Source of the DNA: Rhodothermales bacterium
GTDB lineage: Bacteria; Bacteroidota; Rhodothermia; Rhodothermales; Bin80
Direction of reading: 5' to 3'
DNA: 64,000 bases
Assembly: GCA_958296045.1 (NCBI GenBank)
Contig: CATQHT010000001.1
Span: 885,102-949,101, forward strand
In this document: positions 3,300 through 48,088 of the stretch, piece after piece
Numbering within the stretch: the first letter of the stretch is position 1
How the letters are laid out: every line of letters begins with the position of its first letter
The notes under the pieces: generated by a model
Databases searched by the model: none
What the model was told of the DNA's origin: nothing
Seen by the model: only the letters and a program-made list of their open reading frames with translations
Position numbers and translations under genes: made by a program

Positions 3300-6155
3300 A
3301 TGAAAGCTGTGCTCTCCGCTCTGGCCTGCCTGATGGTTTTCCAAGCCTTTGGACAAGAGAGGGAATCCGTGACGATTGCAGGTACCGTCATATCCGCTGC
3401 AGACAGCGCCGCCCTGCAAGGCGTCAATGTGGTGCTGCTGCAAGGAGGCGTGGCTGCTCCGCTCTATGGTGAAGCCACCAGCCTGACCGGTACCTTCCAG
3501 ATAGAGGCGGCAGCGCGCAGCACCTACGTCATGAGGCTCTCCTTTGTCGGTTACACTACCGTCGAGCGGAGACTCCGCATTGGTACCCAAGACCTTGACC
3601 TCGGGCGTATCGTGATGGTGGAATCCCCGGTGGAGTCCGACGAAGTCGTCGTCATTGGCGAGCAGGAGCCCGTCATGATGCGCGGGGACACCACGGTATT
3701 CAATGCTGACGCTTACAAAGTCAACCCCGATGCGGATGCAGAAGACCTGGTGCGGAAACTTCCCGGTGTTACCGTGGAAGAAGGCGAGGTGCAGGCGCAG
3801 GGTGAAGCGGTGCGCCGCGTACTCCTGGACGGACGTGAGTTCTTCGGGCAGGACCCTACCTTAGCACTGCGCAATATGCCTGCGGAAGTCGTCAAAGAGA
3901 TAGAGGTGTATGACCGCCTCAGCGATCAGGCCCAGTTTACCGGGTTCAATGATGGTAACACTGAAAAGACGGTCAATATCGTTACGCGGCCCGGCATGCG
4001 CGTAGGCCAGTTCGGCAGGCTGCACGGGGGCTATGGCACAGAGTCACGGTACATCGGCGGAGGCAGTGTTAACATCTTTGACGATGAGCGGAGGATTTCG
4101 CTTATCGGATTTAGCAACAACGTTAATCAGCAGAATTTCGCTTCTGAGGATCTGCTTGGCGTCCTTAACACCGCTAGCCGACGGCGCGGTGGGGGCGGTG
4201 GCCGTTTGGGCGACGGACGCGGGCGTGGCCGTGACCAACGCGGAGGCGGAGGCGCGGGGGGAGGCCGCGGAGGCGGATTCAACCGGATGAGCTCCAATCC
4301 GTCTAACTTCCTGGTCGGGCAGCAGCCCGGCGTGAGCACCACCAGCGCCTTGGGCATGAACTACTCTGACCAGTGGGGAGATAAAGTCCAGGTGTCGTCC
4401 AGCTACTTTTTTAATGCCAGCGGCAACACAGCCGATGTATTTCTGGATCGTGAATACGTGCTCGCCGACGCACGGTCGCAGCTCTACAATGAGTCGAACC
4501 TGTCCGAAAGTGATAACCGGAACCACCGGTTCAATATGCGCATGACGTATACCATCGATGAGCGCAACTCCATCATATTCACGCCGCGCGTGAGCTTCCA
4601 AGACAATACCTCCTCTAGCATATTAAGCGGCGTTAACAGTATGCCATCGGGGATGCTGCTCAGCAGGACATCGAACGACTACCGCAGCTCTAACCTGGGC
4701 TACACGTCGAGCGCAAACCTTCTGTTCCGGCACCGACTGGCCAAACCGGGCAGAACGCTCTCTGCCAATCTGGGTCTTGGATTCAATGATCGGTGGGGTG
4801 ACACCAAGCAGCAGTCCGCGAGCGACTTCTTTGACGGGCGCAGCCTTGTTCCCGATTCCACGCTAGCATATGATCAGCGCATTGATTCCGATACCGGGGG
4901 GCGGTCTCTGTCGATGGTGCTGTCCTATACCGAGCCCTTGGGATCCATCGGGTTGCTGGAATTTAGCTACAGACCGTCGCTATCTACTAACCAGTCCGAC
5001 CGGCTTGCCAATGCACTGGATTCGGCTGGCACCTATTCGGTGCTCGACACCGCCTTTTCCAACGTGTTCAGCAACGATGTGATGCGTCAAAGCGGCGGCA
5101 TGAGTCTTCGGGGGCGCGGGGCAAAGCTGTCTGGCGCCATTGGGTTCCAGGTACAGTCGGAGCGTCTGCAGGGCAACGCCACGTTTCCATATGCACTGGC
5201 CGTAGACCGGACTTTTACCAATATCCTTCCGTACGCAATGGCCAACTACCGCTTTGCACGCACCAGCAGTCTGCGACTATTCTATCGCACCAGCACCGGG
5301 ACTCCCTCCATCAACCAGCTCCAGGAGGTGGTAGACAACACGAACCCGCTGCAGCTTACAAGCGGCAACCCGCACCTGAAACCCAGCTACCGATACACCC
5401 TAGTTGCGCGATACAACCATGCAAGGGGTGGGCGCACCGTGATGGGCATGGCAAGTGTGTCCCGGACCGATGACTATATCGGCAATGCCACCTTTTTCGC
5501 TCAGGCGGACACCATGCTGCGGCCTAACGTGCTCCTGTTGCAGGGAGCACAGTTTTCGCAGCCGGAAAATTTAGGCAGCCAGTGGAACGTGCGATCCTTC
5601 GTGACGCTTGGTGTTCCCGTCTGGAAGACCAGCCTAAACCTCAATGGTCGATTCAACTACACCCGAACCCCTGGCATCATCGACGGAGAAAGCAACACGG
5701 CCATCGTGCAAGGCCTCAGCGGCGGTGCCGTACTGAGCAGCAACATAAGCCCTAGGGTGGACTTTACCCTTTCGTACAGCGGTACCTGGTCGCAGATACA
5801 CAACAGCCTTTACCCAGAGTTGGACAACAATTACGTAACGCACAACGCAGGTGCACGGCTGTACCTGATGCCGCTGCCACGGATAGTGATTGATGCTAAC
5901 CTCGCGATGCTGATGTACCAGGGGCTGGGTGACAGCTTCGATCAGAAGAGCACGCTGCTTAACGTCGGAGTGGGCTACAAGCTGCTCAAAGACCGGTCGG
6001 TAGAGGTCAAGCTCATGGTAGCCGATGTGCTGAACCAGAATAGCGCGGTCAGCCGCTCGGTGATGGACGTCTACACAGAAGACAGTCAGACAGATACGTT
6101 GGGCCGGTATATTATGCTCAACCTTTCGTACAGGCTGCGCAACTTCCGCATCTAG
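3300..6155 (+). CDS. outer-membrane beta-barrel receptor with N-terminal CarboxypepD_reg-like domain and plug-like region
   Basis: Signal peptide, then VTIAGTVISAADSAALQGVNVVLL (carboxypeptidase-regulatory-like). A plug-like stretch reads VTVEEGEVQAQGEAVRRVLLDGREF. A long beta-strand-rich C-terminus ends in ..LSYRLRNFRI. A Gly/Arg low-complexity insert lies at about 4175-4285. Confidence 0.75.
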   Translation: MKAVLSALACLMVFQAFGQERESVTIAGTVISAADSAALQGVNVVLLQGGVAAPLYGEATSLTGTFQIEAAARSTYVMRLSFVGYTTVERRLRIGTQDLDLGRIVMVESPVESDEVVVIGEQEPVMMRGDTTVFNADAYKVNPDADAEDLVRKLPGVTVEEGEVQAQGEAVRRVLLDGREFFGQDPTLALRNMPAEVVKEIEVYDRLSDQAQFTGFNDGNTEKTVNIVTRPGMRVGQFGRLHGGYGTESRYIGGGSVNIFDDERRISLIGFSNNVNQQNFASEDLLGVLNTASRRRGGGGGRLGDGRGRGRDQRGGGGAGGGRGGGFNRMSSNPSNFLVGQQPGVSTTSALGMNYSDQWGDKVQVSSSYFFNASGNTADVFLDREYVLADARSQLYNESNLSESDNRNHRFNMRMTYTIDERNSIIFTPRVSFQDNTSSSILSGVNSMPSGMLLSRTSNDYRSSNLGYTSSANLLFRHRLAKPGRTLSANLGLGFNDRWGDTKQQSASDFFDGRSLVPDSTLAYDQRIDSDTGGRSLSMVLSYTEPLGSIGLLEFSYRPSLSTNQSDRLANALDSAGTYSVLDTAFSNVFSNDVMRQSGGMSLRGRGAKLSGAIGFQVQSERLQGNATFPYALAVDRTFTNILPYAMANYRFARTSSLRLFYRTSTGTPSINQLQEVVDNTNPLQLTSGNPHLKPSYRYTLVARYNHARGGRTVMGMASVSRTDDYIGNATFFAQADTMLRPNVLLLQGAQFSQPENLGSQWNVRSFVTLGVPVWKTSLNLNGRFNYTRTPGIIDGESNTAIVQGLSGGAVLSSNISPRVDFTLSYSGTWSQIHNSLYPELDNNYVTHNAGARLYLMPLPRIVIDANLAMLMYQGLGDSFDQKSTLLNVGVGYKLLKDRSVEVKLMVADVLNQNSAVSRSVMDVYTEDSQTDTLGRYIMLNLSYRLRNFRI

Positions 6156-7009: not shown

Positions 7010-7696
7010 CTACAGCTGTTCCAGCGCCCATGCGGCCGCAGCGCCAATCACGTTCCGCGGTGATGAGATGTTACGGGCTGCCTCCAGGAAGCGCCGCAGA
7101 TGAGGAGCACCTGTCCTGGCAAGACTGCGCAGCGCCTCAGCGCGAGCTACGTAGCTGTCATCACGCGCAAAGCGCTCCTTGAAAAACTCGGCCAGCGCAA
7201 CGTCCTGGCTGGCGCCGAGGCTGCGGAGCGCCGCTGCGCGAACGCGAGAATGCACATCCAGGCAGCGCTCCTTGAGAAAAGCGACCGAAGCCTCTGAACC
7301 AAGCGCGGTGATGCTCGTTGCCCGGACATACCAGAACGGATCGTCACGCGCGCTTTCCATGAGCGAGGTCCGCGCAGAAGGCTGCGCGGCGTGCGCGGCC
7401 AGCATCCCTGCTGCACGCGCCCTGCCCATCGCGTTGTCGTGTGTGAGCTGGTACTGCAGCTCAGAGCGCGACTTCGTGTGCACCCATTCGGCCAAAAGCA
7501 CATCGTTTTCGTCGAATCGAACCATCAGGGGGGCTCCTGGCAGGGCGAATGAGAATGAGTCGGTGCGCGCGGTGAGCCAGACCTCTTCGCGCTGAACGCT
7601 GTTGCCAGCTGTCTCTATCCGCAGCGTGACCGGCATTCGATACGCTGCCAGCGTGCCACCAGTCGTGTCCTGTACTTGAGCAACATGGACGGTCAC
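7010..7696 (-). CDS. M1-family aminopeptidase, exon 2 (C-terminal 228 aa, HEAT-like repeats)
   Basis: It begins VTVHVAQVQDTTGG..PVTLRIETAGN.. directly after the intron 3' end and is in frame with exon 1. The part of track ORF 7010..7957 upstream of 7696 reads through intron RNA. Confidence 0.85.
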   Translation of the reverse strand: MTVHVAQVQDTTGGTLAAYRMPVTLRIETAGNSVQREEVWLTARTDSFSFALPGAPLMVRFDENDVLLAEWVHTKSRSELQYQLTHDNAMGRARAAGMLAAHAAQPSARTSLMESARDDPFWYVRATSITALGSEASVAFLKERCLDVHSRVRAAALRSLGASQDVALAEFFKERFARDDSYVARAEALRSLARTGAPHLRRFLEAARNISSPRNVIGAAAAWALEQL

Positions 7697-8401
7697 ATCG
7701 CGGTAGCCCCAGGGTTTCCCCTGGGGCCCCGCACAGATCCGTGCGTGCGCGTTAACGCACACGGCTCTTCCCGCAGGTCGCGCTCCCGCGCATGACGTTA
7801 GGAAGTGGGGATACCCACCTCCAGCCGTAAGCGGTACACCTGCGCCCCGACTGTGGCACTGAGTCCACAGCTCTTGGACAGATTCACGTAATCCGGCCCA
7901 GAGTCCGGCATGAATCCAGCTTTCCGCTTTCCCCTTGGGTGCGACCCTTGGCTCCACCGGCTCCGCCCCGTGGTCATCAACGCGTTGTTCGCTGGCTTCA
8001 TAGCTACTATGGTCGCATCTGACTTCTCTCCACCGTACATCCTCCGATCGGCATTTAGCCTACGCTTTGGCGACCCTCCCCGAAGGGATGGGTAGTGGAG
8101 AGACCTCCCAGGTCCCGATGCAGTACGTACGTGCGTGCCTGGGTTCTTGGACACCGCGGGACCCTCCTCCGCCTCACCATTAACGGCAAAGAAGGTGTTG
8201 CCTTCGACCACGAAGAAACCCTCGGCGTCCCGGACGATGACATTTTCGGTGCTCATTAGCCCTGCCCACCCGCACCTCTACCGACGCTTCGCCTGCACCC
8301 TCGCGGGTACCAACGCACGGCTCGAGGACATGCGTGGATGGTTAGTCCTTCACATCGGGAGACTTTCACTCCCTGTACTGGCACCAGTTAGCCTGGCGCA
8401 C
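7697..8401 (-). ncRNA. ORF-less group II intron, copy 1 (705 nt), inside the aminopeptidase gene in sense orientation
   Basis: The minus-strand RNA starts GUGCGCC (complement of 8395-8401). A domain V-like hairpin lies at 7737-7767 (AGC triad, 2-nt CG bulge, tetraloop). A domain VI hairpin has a bulged A (complement of 7704) 7 nt from the 3' end ...CUACCGCGAU. There is no RT-like ORF. Excising it joins the flanks in frame. Confidence 0.85.
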
Positions 8402-9880
8402 CTCCATCTGCGCCTCATCCCAGATACTGGATACATCAAGCACAGGGTGGCCAGACCGGTATATCCACTGCTCGAAGAACCAGTCCAGGTCCTGTCCGGT
8501 AGCCTCCTGTACGGCCGTCATCAGGTCTGACGTGGCTACAGGCTCAAAGGCATGCTTCGATAGAAAGTGCTGCATGGTGCGCTCCCAGTGCGCATCCCCC
8601 AACAGATCGGTGAGCATGGCCAAAATTGCGGCCCCTTTCTGGTAGGTGTGCCGGTCAAAGTTCTGACTGGGAAACTCCCATCGGCGAAATACTACCGGAC
8701 GTCGGTACCGGCTGGCAGCTTCCGCAAAGTAGGCCTCCTTCTTGCGCAACAGGTTGAGCGCTCCCTCGTCGGGGCCATGCGCGTGCGCAGCCCACCGGTA
8801 CTCGCTGTAGGTCGCGAAGCTCTCGCTCAGCCAAGTGTCTGACCAGTGGCGATAGGAAACCAGATTCCCCCACCACTGGTGTGCGGCTTCATGCGCTACC
8901 AGCCAGTCGCTCGGGAAGTCCTGATGGGCAGCTTCATCATGGATGGTGGAGTGGCCGAGCACAGTGGCGGTAGTGCTTTCTGCGCCGCCGCCGATGCCAG
9001 GGATGGTGATCTGGTCGTACTTGACCCAAGGGTACGGCGTACTATACAGGTCAGTCAGGTACTGAAGGATTTCCGGTGTGCGCTCAAAAGATCGCATGGC
9101 ATCGTCCACGTCCTGCGGATACACCCAGTAGTTGACAGGAAGGCTTCCTAGTGAGTCCTTGAGCACGACGTACGGCCCGGCGACCATGACGTAGAGGTAG
9201 GTGGGGTGTGGCAATTGCTGGATCCAGTGAAAGGTGTGTTCCCCATTGCCATGGTCGGTCACGGACGCGAGGCGTCCGTTGGATAGCACCTGGTAGTCTT
9301 TTCGGACAGTCACCAATGTCTCGTTGGTGGCCCTGTCCTGCGGGTGGTCGTTGCAGGGCATCCAGTGCCGGGCGCCTTCAGGAAAGGACAGTGTGTTGAT
9401 CAGCTGTGGGTTCTCGTCTGTGGGCTGCTTAAAGCCAAGGCCCAGGTCGTAGGACGCAGGCATTCCGTAGGCTGTTGCATCTACATCCACATCCTCAGCG
9501 TAGTAAGTCACCGCAAAGTGGATGGTATCGCCGCGCGCCGCAGGTTCTTTTAGCGTGATCCGCAGCTGGCGCGGATCCTGGGTGAAGGTAAGTGCATGGT
9601 TGTGTGCGTCTATAGCGGCGGTGGCGACGAAGGTCTCGGCATCGAGCACTATTGTGGTCAGGTTATCTTCAAGCGACCGCAGCGAGATCACGTTGGACCC
9701 GTAGAACGAGCGTGCGGGTTCGTCAAAACGCAGGGTGACGCGGTAATGCAATGCGTCGTACGGACGGACAGGTTCTGCCTGGAGCGGGCGGCTATAGATG
9801 TCGGAGCGCTGCGCTTGGACGGTAGCTGGGGCAGCTCCGATCCACAGCGCAGCAAATAGGATTGTAATAGATTGTTTCAT
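8402..9880 (-). CDS. M1-family aminopeptidase, exon 1 (N-terminal 493 aa)
   Basis: Signal peptide; GGAESTT (GAMEN-like) motif; zinc motif HEAAHQWWGNLVSYRHWSDTWLSESFATY (HExxH-18-E). The exon ends ..IWDEAQME at 8402. Track ORF 8366..9880 runs 12 codons into the intron. Confidence 0.9.
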
Positions 9881-43649: not shown

Positions 43650-45830
43650 CTTAGGGATCATCCATAAATAACTTGCCCATCTGGACAGGTTGTCTCAGAT
43701 AAGCGGGATGTGGTCCAGTCCTTCGCTGGCGCATTACAGAGCATTCCGGGTCCTGTTAGCCTAGTGTTATGGAACACTGTTGATCAAGCCAAGACTGACT
43801 GAGTACTTTTTCGGCCCGCTCATCAGCTGTTTTCCGCGCTCAGTGGGTAGCTGGATCCGTTTGCCCTTAATCCTTGTTCATCATGGATGCCCGCTCCACG
43901 AGCCAGATGCAGTTCGCTGCATCCATGAGCTATTGTCTGCATTATGACTATATTACGATATGTCCTAATACGATACATGTCATAAGGAGGCCATGAGACC
44001 CGTTACCTATTCCGCCGACAAGCTGGCGGAGGCCCTGCGACGCATGACCGTTGCTACCTTACCCGAACTGGCTGCTGCGCTCGGCAATTGCTCCGCCATC
44101 ACGGTCCACCGCAAACTTAAGCAGCTCGGCTACCTCTCTAGCTACTCGCACCGTGGCAAGTACTACGCGCTCCAAGCGGGTGCGAACTTTGATGCGCACG
44201 GTTTGTGGTTTCACAACGATATTCGATTCTCCACTTACGGTACGCTTCGCAATACGGCCAAGATGCTGGTTGAGGCATCCCCACTGGGCTACCGTTCTAC
44301 CGAACTGGATGATGTGCTGCAAGTCCGCACCATTGATACGTTAGCGGCCCTGGTCCGTGACGGCGATCTTGCCCGTGTCCGCTTTCAGGAGCGGAGTGTG
44401 TATTGTTCTGCGGATATTACTCGTCAGCGGCGCCAAGTTGCTGCTCGCCGGATTCAAGCAGCCGGAATTGAGGCCATGCCCAATCCCACCCAAGCCAACA
44501 GCACACACTCAGCTGCGATCGCCTTGTTTTACAGTGTGCTGAATGAGAAGCAGCGGCGCCTGTTTGGGGGTCTTACCTCTCTGTTATGCGGCTATGGTGG
44601 GGACCGACGGGCCGCGAGTCTGTTCGGTCTGCACCGAAAGACCGTCCGAAAGGGTCGCCTTGAACTGGCCAGCGGCAAAGTGGAGGCGCATCGCATTCGC
44701 AAACCGGGTGGGGGGCGTACCGCCTTGAAAAAAAAGCCCTTGGATGATCGCGGAGCTGATCCGACTGGTCCAACCGGAGACCGCTGGTGATCCCATGGGT
44801 GGTCTGTTATGGACACGGCGTTCGCTGTCCAAGCTCGCCGCTGCTCTTGCGTGCTCAGGTATCAAGGTCAGCCCGACCACGGTAGGTAAATGGCTCCGAA
44901 TGCTCGGATACTCCATGCGCGTGAATCGCAAGAGTCTCAGTCGTACCGCACCGTCCGGGCGCGACAAGCAATTCAGGCACATCGCTGCTCTGCGTCAGCA
45001 GTGCTATGACGATGGCATTCCCGTTATCAGTGTGGACACCAAAAAGAAAGAGTTGATCGGGCTGTTTGCTAACTCCGGGGCTGTCTGGTGCCGCGCTCCA
45101 CACCAGGTCAATGATCACGACTTCCGGTCTCAGGCCAAGGGCTTGGCGGTACCTTACGGCATCTACGATGTGCAGGCGAATAGCGGTACCGTCTTTGTCG
45201 GTGACTCCCGGGATACTCCGGCCTTCGCCGTGGATTGCATTGCCCACTGGTTCAATACCGTGGGCCGTAGTCGGTATCCCGATGCCGACCGGCTCGTTAT
45301 CTTGGCTGACTGTGGCGGAGCGAACGGCTACCGTTCACACGCTTGGAAGTACTTCCTGCAAACAGGTGTGTGCGATATCCATCAACTGAGAGTTTCGGTT
45401 GCGCATTATCCCAGCGGTGCAAGCAAGTGGAACCCCATCGAGCACCGCCTCTTTAGTGCTATAAGCCGGAACTGGGCGGGCCGACCACTGGATAGCTGGG
45501 AAACACTGCTCAAGTACATCCGCACGACAACTACCAAGTCTGGGTTGCGCGTCAACTCTGTCAGAGTAACGAAGCAATATCAAACCGGCATCAAAATCAG
45601 CAAGCAACAGATGGTAAAGGTGAACATTAACCGTAGCGAGACGCTACCTCAGTGGAACTACGACATCTACCCCAGCGAAACGCTGGCCTCTGCTCGGATG
45701 CCAACAGATGCCTGACTACCCAAACATCATCTGCCAGATCGCGATTTACCTCCCCTAGTCTGCCAAAGTGGACTCCTGGAGAGGTTGACTTCATTCAGGA
45801 TGGGAAAGTTATTTATGGACGAACCCTTAG
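43650..45830 (+). mobile_element. ISAzo13-family insertion sequence
   Basis: Imperfect terminal inverted repeats of about 36 bp. The left one is cttagggatcatccataaataacttgcccatc at 43650. The right one, reverse-complemented, is ctaagggttcgtccataaataactttcccatc and ends at 45830. They enclose the transposase frames. No clear target duplication seen. Confidence 0.7.
43993..45715 (+). pseudogene. ISAzo13-family DDE transposase in two frames, switching at an A8 run
   Basis: ORF 43993..44790 ends ..IRKPGGGRTALKKK. ORF 44744..45715 continues the family sequence ..IAELIRLVQPETAGDPMGGLLWT...ISVDTKKKELIG...ADCGGANG...KWNPIEHRLFS. The switch is at aaaaaaaa 44728-44735. Confidence 0.8.
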
Positions 45831-46089: not shown

Positions 46090-48088
46090 CCTTGCTCCTG
46101 AGCCAGACATACCGCTGCTATACAAAGAAGGCGGGCTATGCCCGTCTGCGGCGGAAGTTCGTAAACGGTAAGTGGGTGCGCCAGGCTAACTGGTGCCAGT
46201 TCAGGGAGTGAAAGTCTCCCGATGTGAAGGACTAACCATCCACGCATCTCCTCGAGCCGTGCGTTGGTACCCGCGAGGGTGCCAGCCGAGCGTCGGTCGA
46301 GGTGCGGGTAGGCAGGGCTAATGAGCACCGAAAATGTTATCGTCCGGGATGCCGAGGCTTTCTGCTTGGTCGAAGGCAACACCTTCTTTGCCGTTAATGG
46401 TGAGGTGGAGGAGGGTCCCGCGGTGTCCAAGAACCCAGGCACGCACATACGTACTGCATCGGGACCTGGGAGGTCTCTCCATTACCCATCCCTTTGGGGA
46501 GGGTCGCCAAAGCGTAGGCTAAATGCTGATCGGAGGATGTACGGTGGCGTGAAGTCAGATGTGACCATAGTAGCTACGAAGCCAGCGAACAACGCGTGGA
46601 TGACCACGGGGCGGAGCCGGTGGAGCTAAGGGTCGCACCCAAGGGAAAAGCGGAAAGCCGGATTCATGCCGGACTCTGGGCCGGTTTTCGTGAATCTGTC
46701 CAATGGCTGTGGACTCTGAGCCACAGTCGGGGCGCAGGTGTACCGCTTACGGCTGGGGGTGGGTATCCCCACTTCCTAACGTCATGCGCGACAGCGCGAC
46801 CTGCGGGAGGAGCCGTGTGCGTCAACGCGCACGCACGGATGTGTGCGGGGCCCCAGCGGAAACCCTGGGGCTACCGCGATGTCCGCAATTGGGCGGTCGA
46901 ACAATGCCGCAACGCACACAAGGTAGCAGAGAAGCATCCGAGCTTTTTCACGTTGACGAAGCTCTGGACGGCCGCCCGCAACGCCGATGAGCGCAATCTC
47001 GAGTTCGGCGTGACTGAGCAGCGTTCTCTGATCAGGGGCGTGACGGAGGGTTACAAGCGCTTTTTCAATAAGCACAATGCGCGCCCGCCGCGTTTCAGCG
47101 GCGACTTGGTGAAGAGCTTCAGGCTGCTACGAAAGCCCGAACGCGTCAGGCGCCAAGACTATCGCGTTCGCATCAAGGGCGTCGGGTACGTCCGTTTCAC
47201 CGATTGGCGCGGGTTGATCAAGCGCTACGGCTGCAAGTTCGTGCGCATCGTGCGGTCGTCGCTGGGTACCGAATACTCGATACAAGTCGTGTACGAGCGC
47301 CCCGAGGCGCCAGAGAACAGCTGCGCAGACACGCCGATGGCCGTGGACCTTGGCTGCAAGGCCATCGCGACGCTGGCGGATGGGAAGAGCTACGCGCCCA
47401 TCAAAAAGAGTGAGCCCCGCAGGGACGCTGTGCGGCGTCGGGCTGCTAAGACGAAGAAAGGCACGCGTTTGCGCCGCAAGCGGTTCGGTGCTTGGCGCAA
47501 GGAGGCCGAGCGAGTAGTAAGACGCAACCGCGGGTACCGCCACGAGGTGGCGGCCGACGTCGTTAAGCGATCCGCGAATCTGTTTCTGGAAGACCTGAAA
47601 GTAGAACGCATGACACGCGCCGGTGGCAGCCGCAAGACGGGGCTGAACCGATCGATGCGCGCGCAAGGGCTGTACGAATTGGTGCAGCTGTTGAAGTACA
47701 AATCCGCTTTGCTTGGCGGTAAGTGGAGCTGGTTCCGCCGAACGACACAACGCAGAGATGCAGCGCTTGCCCTCACAAGCCAGAGGAAAGGCTACGCCTG
47801 GCTGACAGGAAGCATCGTTGTGCCACGTGCGGAAAGACCCAGTGCCGCGACGTTAACGCGGCGTTGAACGTGTTGTATCGGGGCCTTTGCCCTGATGGAT
47901 GGGCGGCGAGCCTATCGTACGCGCAACACATGTCTGCTCACCCGGACGCTGAGCGGCATCCGCTGTTGGATGCTGTGGCAGGTCTGGGGAGTGTACAGAA
48001 TCGTGCTCGTGAGCTGCATCCGCAGGGGTGTTGCGCACCCACGAGTTCATGCGAAATTGACCACCGACCAACCAGGCAGATATGTTAA
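46056..48088 (+). pseudogene. tnpB: TnpB-like (IS200/IS605 OrfB) RNA-guided nuclease gene, interrupted by a group II intron and carrying a 1-nt frameshift
   Basis: Proposed exon 1 (46056-46175) reads MPESRPTRALVALLLSQTYRCYTKKAGYARLRRKFVNGKW. Exon 2 from 46881 has ..RFFNKHNARPPRF.., RuvC-I VDLGCKAIATLADG and RuvC-II FLEDLKVERM. The frame breaks at about 47720-47728. ORF 47723..48088 continues ELVPPNDTTQRCSACPH..HRCATCG...CRDVNAALNV (zinc finger and RuvC-III). Confidence 0.75.
46176..46880 (+). ncRNA. ORF-less group II intron, copy 2 (705 nt), inside the tnpB-like gene in sense orientation
   Basis: It is colinear with copy 1 over the full length, with scattered substitutions. It starts GTGCGCC at 46176. 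Domain V lies at 46810-46840, the domain VI bulged A at 46873, and it ends ..CTACCGCGAT at 46880. Confidence 0.85.

Follow-up and report, generated by a model that had tools for sequence, protein, structure and literature searches.

The DNA analysed here is a 64,000-nt stretch of a Rhodothermales bacterium (contig CATQHT010000001.1), referred to below as the window. On its minus strand, positions 7697-8401 hold a complete, six-domain, IIB-like group II intron, which interrupts a conserved gene for an M1 aminopeptidase on its sense strand, precisely at the boundary of codons 493 and 494. This copy, W1, contains no open reading frame (ORF) for a reverse transcriptase (RT) or maturase, and a second copy in the same window, W2, interrupts a gene for the RNA-guided nuclease TnpB. 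From the comparisons set out below, we consider it probable that W1 descends from an ORF-less intron at home in TnpB genes, was retargeted to the peptidase gene and is spliced there in vivo, most likely with the help of a maturase supplied in trans. An overview of the features is given in Table 1.

When the whole window was scanned with the Rfam models at their gathering thresholds, three matches were obtained in total. In W1, RF02005 (group-II-D1D4-6) covers intron nt 36-260 (8142-8366, minus strand) with 167.7 bits (E = 1e-48, gathering score 49), and RF00029 (group II D5-D6) covers 7697-7769 on the same strand with 40.0 bits, a value equal to its gathering score, and ends on the proposed last base of the intron. 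Matches of this strength lie well outside what chance would give. The 705-nt intron that a preliminary description of this DNA, made from its letters alone, had proposed at this position is in this way matched in both halves by covariance models, and its termini were found as they had been described: the 5' end reads GUGCGCC, the first five bases of which (8401-8397) fit GUGYG, the 3' end reads ..CUACCGCGAU (..GGGGCUACCGCGAU), and domain 6 (D6), ..GGGGCU-A-CCGCGAU, carries a bulged adenosine seven nucleotides before the 3' end. For domain 5 (D5), the AGC triad and a 2-nt bulge were borne out, although the bulge is AC in the usual register and not CG as first described.

The limits of the domains follow from comparison with related introns of other genomes. 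In domain 1 (D1) the closing helix CCAGG/CCUGG covaries with CCAAG/CUUGG, domain 2 (D2) consists of a 10-bp outer helix, UCUCUCCACU/GGUGGAGAGA, around a covarying hairpin, and at the base of domain 3 (D3) all six pairs show compensatory changes; across D2 and D3 together, RNAalifold on 18 diverse relatives found such changes in 30 of the 46 pairs. The 32-nt length of D5, its G.A opposite the triad G and its NAAC-type loop are common to essentially all of the at least 110 relatives described below. In the junction between D2 and D3 (J2/3), most family members have a G together with a terminal C, L015, L105, L016 and L077 have a U together with a terminal A, and the window copies have an A together with a terminal U; this covariation of A382 with the intron terminus would fit a gamma-gamma' interaction. 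A309, just before the inner hairpin of D2, was dropped as a candidate for gamma, as the relatives ending in A have a U only at J2/3. Two folding results were also set aside, namely an RNAalifold prediction in which CCUGG, the D1-closing strand, paired with J2/3 or with the segment preceding D5, which was rejected because this strand covaries with nt 6-10, and the unconstrained minimum free energy fold of the whole intron, which pairs the 5' end with the D5 region.

Exon 1 of the interrupted gene encodes a signal peptide and, according to Pfam, the domains Peptidase_M1_N (PF17900, E = 7e-18) and catalytic Peptidase_M1 (PF01433, E = 1e-42), of which the latter spans residues 264-472 and lies entirely in this exon; it also holds the sequence HEAAHQWW...E, which satisfies the HEXXH-(18)-E motif of the M1 metallo-aminopeptidases. 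Since exon 2 encodes a C-terminal HEAT-repeat domain (HEAT_2, E = 3e-18), the intron is located just past the catalytic domain. In-silico ligation of both exons keeps the frame and gives 721 codons and a stop, with a predicted mRNA junction ..CAGATGGAG|GTGACC.., so that the exon ends and the in-frame ligation given in the preliminary description hold. A search with the spliced protein found 1000 homologues, the best of which are uninterrupted, about 721 residues long and 64-66% identical over 97-100% of the length, and a MAFFT alignment with 59 uninterrupted M1 homologues shows neither a gap nor an extra residue at the ME|VT junction. The closest homologue, P0002 (locus L001), is syntenic and intron-less, its DNA being continuous at the homologous point (..CAGAATGAG|CTTCAC..), and shares with the window a neighbourhood of Pro_racemase, M1 peptidase, a 263-aa ORF and an outer-membrane protein with CarboxypepD_reg; the orthologues thus carry contiguous coding sequence at this site. 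Without splicing, the ORF at 8366-9880 (minus strand) runs 11 codons into the intron, adding the residues VRQANWCQYRE to give the C-terminus ..QMEVRQANWCQYRE. The protein database stores the window peptidase (P0001) in this form, as a 504-aa fragment from automatic gene calling whose last 11 residues are intron-encoded.

Both splice sites are fixed without recourse to the reading frame, because the pairings of exon-binding sites (EBS) with intron-binding sites (IBS) covary across the relatives, EBS1-IBS1 as well as EBS3-IBS3. EBS1 of the relatives comprises the six nucleotides immediately 5' of a conserved GGUYGAAGRC in the terminal loop of D1. Its pairing with the end of the own exon is 6/6 in 21 of 22 distinct members when G.U pairs are allowed, as opposed to 4 of 416 cross pairings, and W1 also pairs at 6/6, two of the pairs being G.U. 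For EBS3, the column forms a pair with the nucleotide that opens the 3' exon in 14 of 14 members, the pairs being G-C, A-U, U-A, C-G and in one case G.U. Judged by the EBS1 and EBS3 pairings, exon recognition is of the IIB type. Some relatives deviate from GUGYG at the 5' end, with GAGCG or GCGCG in L008, L034, L068 and L105 and GUACG in L030, L064 and L073, and these termini look genuine because the same relatives obey the EBS1-IBS1 rule exactly.

In W2, RF02005 matches 46211-46435 (plus strand) with 157.8 bits, and the D5-D6 region scores 30.6 bits, below the gathering score. W2 splits TnpB after codon 28, in the sense orientation and in frame (..FVNGKW|VRNWAVEQ..), and an intact, 95% identical paralogue, P0121, reads through this point uninterrupted (MLLSQIYRCYTKKAGYARLRRMFVNGKW|VRNWAVEQ). 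The 90% identity cluster of this TnpB has 24 members on contigs of 2,880,851, 1,054,277 and 828,064 nt, and because the second of these is the length recorded for the window's own contig, the members are regarded as paralogues from one genome. This genome holds at least 24 TnpB paralogues at 90% identity or more (including P0121 and P0131-P0144), many of them truncated or frameshifted and most without the intron. In P0133, which belongs to this set, the protein begins with residues derived from the intron (CVNAHARICAGPQGKPWGYRD), joined to VRNWAV, and it represents a third intron copy at the same TnpB site. As P0133 and W2 share this site, TnpB is likely the recurrent home of the intron and the peptidase gene an ectopic site, reached via a changed EBS1. 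The occurrence of the ORF-less unit at three or more sites also implies that an RT was supplied in trans, at least in the past. An IStron was considered and dismissed, as the element belongs to group II, is situated within the ORF of TnpB and is absent from most TnpB paralogues.

W1 and W2 differ at 39 positions, which amounts to 5.5% overall, but at three of the six positions of EBS1, and each EBS1 fits only its own exon, with cross pairing of 4/6. This difference is the signature expected of retargeting by a change in EBS1. Where the differences between the copies could be polarised with 12 outgroup relatives (16 sites), the consensus is kept by W1 at 13 and by W2 at 3. The outer helix of D2 is perfect over 10 bp in W1 and has two broken pairs in W2, in which the first pair of D5 is also broken. 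By this comparison, the peptidase copy is the better-preserved ribozyme, a pattern compatible with purifying selection acting on W1 in the enzyme gene, and equally with W1 being the younger copy. The preliminary description had missed W2, the TnpB paralogues with the home site, and the better preservation of the peptidase copy.

Two further observations concern the surroundings of W2. The frameshift of the interrupted TnpB reads CGGTAAGTGG at 47721-47730 (plus strand), the same 10-mer that ends the 5' exon of W2 (46166-46175), and intact TnpB paralogues read LLGGK-VELVPPND at this point; the shared 10-mer may have arisen by chance or may have been left behind by the activity of the intron at a look-alike site. 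Directly upstream of the TnpB element, an ISAzo13-type DDE transposase (PF07592, E = 4e-110) is encoded at 43993-45715 (plus strand) in two overlapping ORFs, 43993-44790 and 44744-45715, and is perhaps expressed by frameshifting or broken.

Table 1. Positions of the two intron copies, their structural elements and the interrupted genes in the window.
Feature	Window position	Intron nt	Strand	Remarks
ORF-less group II intron, copy W1	7697-8401		minus	705 nt; Rfam matches and exact in-frame insertion
Domain 1	8107-8396	6-295	minus	RNAalifold on 14 members, alignment, RF02005
Domain 2	8025-8103	299-377	minus	RNAalifold, compensatory changes in most pairs
Domain 3	7940-8017	385-462	minus	Basal helix UGCGAC/GUCGCA
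Gamma, A382 in J2/3	8020	382	minus	Proposed partner of the last intron nucleotide, U705
Domain 4 remnant	7770-7939	463-632	minus	Site of the deleted RT/maturase ORF, as judged from relatives
Domain 5	7736-7767	635-666	minus	32 nt; AGC triad, 2-nt bulge; RF00029 alignment, exact pattern match, family comparison
Domain 6	7697-7735		minus	Bulged branch-point A at 7704, then 7 nt to the 3' end
IBS1 AUGGAG	8402-8407		minus	Last 6 nt of exon 1
EBS1 CUUCGU	8210-8215	187-192	minus	Terminal loop of D1, directly 5' of GGUCGAAGGC
EBS3 C253	8149	253	minus	Pairs with G+1 of exon 2
IBS3 G7696	7696		minus	First base of exon 2
Aminopeptidase exon 1	8402-9880		minus	1479 nt, 493 codons, ends ..DEAQME
Aminopeptidase exon 2	7010-7696		minus	687 nt, 228 codons and stop, starts VTVHVAQVQD
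Intron copy W2	46176-46880		plus	705 nt, 94.5% identical to W1, no indels
W2 EBS1 CUGCUU	46362-46367		plus	Matches own exon end AAGUGG, 6/6
TnpB exon 1	46092-46175		plus	28 codons, TTG start, ends ..FVNGKW; IS200/IS605-type RNA-guided nuclease
TnpB exon 2	46881-48088		plus	OrfB_IS605 and Cas12f1-like TNB zinc ribbon (Pfam); 1-nt frameshift at about 47721-47730

When one genome per species was scanned for a degenerate D5 pattern, at least 110 loci were obtained, mostly from Acidobacteriota (including Vicinamibacterales) and, among the matches listed, also from Arenicellales, Chloroflexota, Thermodesulfobacteriota, Spirochaetia, Gemmatimonadota, Planctomycetota (Isosphaeraceae) and two metagenome-assembled genomes (MAGs) of Bacteroidota/Rhodothermales. 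Many of these relatives are about 70% identical to intron nt 1-473, and they occur in two forms, an ORF-less one of about 650 nt and one of about 1.9 kb with an RVT_1 protein of about 490 aa that has no HNH domain. In domain 4 (D4), where relatives carry about 1.25 kb of the ORF for this intron-encoded protein (IEP), W1 has a remnant with frameshifted traces of IEP codons (..AEPVEPRVAPKGKAES..RESV..), the traces being weak in tblastn; the longest ORF within the intron is a frameshifted remnant, and the last approximately 70 nt of D4 do not align with the relatives. As this comparison shows, the RT/maturase ORF has been deleted from D4, in a lineage whose IEPs have no endonuclease domain.

The usual position of an IEP is wholly within D4. 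In the IEP-encoding relatives, however, the reading frame opens within D2, at about nt 362, and continues across J2/3 and D3 as far as D4, so that it overlaps nt 362-462 (window 7940-8040), and the NCBI annotation of a rhizobial relative places the IEP start at the same point. The retention of the first 60-70 "codons" in all ORF-less derivatives is accounted for by this overlap, and because the frame begins in D2, the apparent N-terminal IEP remnant (MYGGEKSD.., frameshifted) is mostly ribozyme core. The idea that some 60 retained IEP codons represent a relic maturase-binding site was dropped, as the stretch corresponds to the 3' half of D2, J2/3 and D3.

The IEPs of the family are 53-57% identical to ltrA genes on plasmids of rhizobia and Burkholderia, the ribozyme of which also matches RF02005. 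One class E intron has been reported on an accessory plasmid of S. meliloti (PMC5894124), and the family may belong to bacterial class E, an attempt to link the two via this plasmid having given no decisive record. As regards a close IEP-encoding parent of the window copies, the genome scan with the D5 pattern gave only relatives of about 70% identity, and the 29 loci found in metagenomes with a lineage-specific 5' 21-mer are likewise no closer, all being 70-73% identical. The closest D5-D6 relatives among the matches listed, with 84-85% identity, are L059 (Bacteroidota RHO3_bin_5) and L095 and L098 (Rhodothermales jk18xAbins.42); these copies lie at the very ends of short-read MAG contigs, and the element appears to be multicopy and assembly-breaking in related bacteria.

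Family members lie in the sense strand of apparent genes at L081 (+1885), L099 (+3249), L062, L089, L013, L046 and L008, the hosts of which, as read from translated motifs alone, include transposases of the IS5/IS1182-like, IS4-like and IS3 (rve) types, an acyl-AMP ligase and a Ser/Thr kinase (..DVWAL|CVILYEML..). Nearly identical 1.9-kb members with the EBS1 CACAGC share the target ..CTGTG|C, a Leu-Cys codon pair, on the sense strand. Because of the transposase, kinase and acyl-AMP ligase insertions in other genomes, insertion into genes can be regarded as a habit of this intron family. A sense insertion in an enzyme gene had been called unusual at first; the insertion is real, but it is less exceptional than this suggests, given that the family is commonly found in the sense strand of genes and W2 in TnpB. 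The family also forms twintrons in the Vicinamibacterales MAG OZ244228.1 (L011, minus strand, about 1250-2205; L078, plus strand, about 4741-5693), in which an ORF-less inner copy of 654 nt sits at about nt 241, in D1, of an outer copy of the same family, and EBS1 and EBS3 of the inner copy match the sequence of the outer intron.

The course of events that we favour can be outlined as follows. The intron would be a non-autonomous derivative that normally resides in TnpB, a multicopy gene in the same genome. A variant whose 6-nt EBS1 had changed at three positions would have reverse-spliced into a look-alike site in the peptidase gene, where an RT supplied in trans would have copied it into DNA. 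In the peptidase pre-mRNA, EBS1 CUUCGU would pair with AUGGAG and EBS3 C253 with G+1, the 2'-OH of the bulged D6 adenosine (window 7704) would attack the 5' splice site 8402|8401, and the freed exon 1 would attack 7697|7696, whereupon the lariat would be released and exon ligation would restore the 721-codon ORF. The maturase would most likely be made elsewhere in the genome, the alternative being unassisted self-splicing; the preliminary description had rightly named these two routes. The splicing steps are predictions read from the sequence.

Several results weigh against splicing of W1 with a trans-acting maturase. The D5-D6 score of W1 is level with the Rfam threshold, which is explained by the family-wide traits of D5 (32 nt, G.A, NAAC-type loop) and not by decay. 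In several relatives, a hypervariable stretch 5' of the EBS1 hairpin pairs over 4-6 bp with exon positions -9 to -14, and for W1 and W2 weak or differently placed matches but no convincing EBS2-IBS2 pairing were found. In a tblastn search of the 64-kb window, out of a genome of about 4.8 Mb, with two family IEPs, the best match had E = 0.09, and the window contains no YADD-type ORF, in agreement with the preliminary description, according to which neither the intron nor the window has an RT/maturase ORF. When the N-terminus of the remnant IEP was searched against 5.8 billion proteins, only ORFs of 50-92 aa with at most 59% identity were returned, none of them from the contigs of this genome, though the set holds its TnpB paralogues, and with the caveat that the gene caller may have started an IEP downstream of the queried region. 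Because of this negative protein search, a cognate full-length intron may be absent, and we consider it conceivable, if rather unlikely, that the retargeted TnpB-homed intron is kept in the enzyme gene as a splicing-only element while the genome no longer encodes the cognate maturase. If there were no maturase and no splicing at all, W1 would be a dead insertion and the gene would be interrupted, with a 504-aa truncated peptidase or no functional enzyme as the outcome, which has a minor but appreciable chance of being correct. Such a product, exon 1 plus 11 intron residues, as read from the ORF that stops there, would retain the N-terminal and catalytic domains and lose the C-terminal HEAT domain; it would agree with the searches for an RT and a cognate IEP and with the state of the sister copy W2, which shows ribozyme decay and lies in a frameshifted TnpB, and IEP-dependent bacterial introns such as RmInt1 can splice poorly in vivo (PMC5894124). 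However, exon 2 has not diverged in excess, as its identity relative to that of exon 1 is 0.76-0.86 for the window gene versus 0.67-0.87 among intron-less homologues, 49 of the 50 columns conserved at 90% or more are kept, and the 228-codon frame is open. In addition, W1 keeps the consensus ribozyme bases and intact D2, D3 and D5 helices, and its EBS1 and EBS3 are perfectly matched to the exons. These arguments are also compatible with a recent insertion, after which intact exons are likewise expected, and the better preservation of W1 could just mean that it is the younger copy.

Splicing could also proceed in vivo without any protein, as proposed for C.te.I1 of Clostridium tetani, which self-splices robustly in a genome without an IEP (PMC4424553, PMC3919590). 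The intactness of all six domains and of the exon-binding sites and the failure to find an IEP in the window or the protein set speak for this, but movement of the ORF-less unit to three or more sites is evident, and for this an RT in trans was needed at least formerly. Moreover, most bacterial group II introns require their IEP at physiological Mg2+, and self-sufficiency is a property that a sequence cannot demonstrate, so that we regard this alternative as improbable. Finally, a repeat could have been placed inside the gene by faulty assembly or annotation, given that the element is multicopy and that related short-read assemblies break inside it (L059, L095 and L098). Such an artefact is hardly credible here, as 39 positions distinguish the window copies, which also have unique flanks, the junctions are nucleotide-exact and in frame, the contig is about 1.05 Mb long, and EBS1 of W1 is complementary specifically to the exon end of this gene, which a misassembly would not yield.

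A IIB-like group II intron that lacks an ORF and occupies a host gene is an element of a known kind and not unprecedented in bacteria, and it is the paired TnpB copy together with the EBS1 retargeting that makes this case more informative. A single window offers an unusually clean natural experiment, with the same intron in a probably neutral site, the broken TnpB, and in a conserved enzyme gene, with an EBS1 that differs between the copies and matches the own site in each, and with the better-preserved copy in the enzyme gene. If W1 is indeed spliced, it would add a documented case of a bacterial protein whose synthesis requires group II splicing, illustrate how a non-autonomous intron can leave its home transposon for host genes as its EBS1 drifts, and raise the question of which protein, if any, supplies the maturase function. 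Were the intron instead a resident in a genome without a maturase, it would parallel, in a free-living or symbiotic bacterium, the path by which selfish retroelements became resident introns in organelles. Relatives appear to invade host genes in other genomes too (kinase, acyl-AMP ligase). As gene callers split the peptidase and leave a database fragment, intron-aware annotation would change the reported gene content of such genomes.

With regard to known systems, the introns of Thermosynechococcus elongatus, a family with ORF-less copies served by an IEP in trans, resemble the window intron in the loss of the RT/maturase, in several near-identical ORF-less copies per genome with diverged EBS1 at different sites, including protein-coding genes, and probably in the dependence on a trans-acting protein. 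They differ from it in that no related IEP-encoding copy was seen here, in the 64 kb read and in the database search, in the host phylum, which here is Bacteroidota, and in the intron lineage, which here is of the Rfam D1D4-6 type with an IEP lacking the endonuclease (En) domain. [quoted passage not shown] The known exception to this co-occurrence is C.te.I1 (PMC4424553, PMC3919590), which interrupts a surface-layer protein gene of Clostridium tetani (PMC3919590, PMC4024640). Like the window intron, it is ORF-less and lies in the sense strand of a protein gene, its splicing fuses two frames, as is predicted for W1, and no IEP is nearby. However, C.te.I1 is a single-copy intron in an IEP-free genome and splices alternatively with a shifted 5' splice site, whereas the window intron is multicopy and a single canonical junction is predicted for it.

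Lineages without the En domain, RmInt1 and RmInt2 among them, are classic examples of introns that home into insertion sequences (IS) (PMC5894124); these two introns of Sinorhizobium meliloti (IIB3/class D) home into the ISRm2011-2 and ISRm17 genes (PMC5894124, PMC4615759). The window intron shares with them an IEP lineage without an endonuclease domain, IIB-like exon recognition through EBS1 and EBS3, and probably also a home inside a multicopy transposable element and ectopic sites reached via relaxed or changed target pairing. In contrast, RmInt1 and RmInt2 encode their own IEP of 419 aa and have a DDE transposase gene as their home, whereas in the family of the window intron the IEPs of relatives are about 490 aa long, with the identity of 53-57% given above to a rhizobial intron type different from RmInt1/RmInt2 and possibly of class E, and the likely home of the window intron is a TnpB gene. 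IStrons (PMC10690162) are likewise associated with a TnpB-bearing element, as is W2; an IStron is a group I intron that forms the 5' end of an IS200/IS605 transposon, whereas W2 is a group II intron that interrupts TnpB at codon 28, and because most TnpB paralogues are without it, W2 is to be seen as a parasite of the IS and not as part of a fused unit. Bacterial group II introns mostly avoid host genes (PMC4424553). Cyanobacterial examples such as the twintron of Trichodesmium (PMC4649490), and in E. coli the groEL intron (PMC12584367), are comparable to W1 in that they lie in or at conserved host genes, where accurate splicing is needed. The cyanobacterial introns in conserved genes are mostly IEP-encoding CL/IIB1 types, unlike the ORF-less window intron, and the groEL intron is located at the stop codon and leaves the protein unsplit, whereas the window intron splits the protein.

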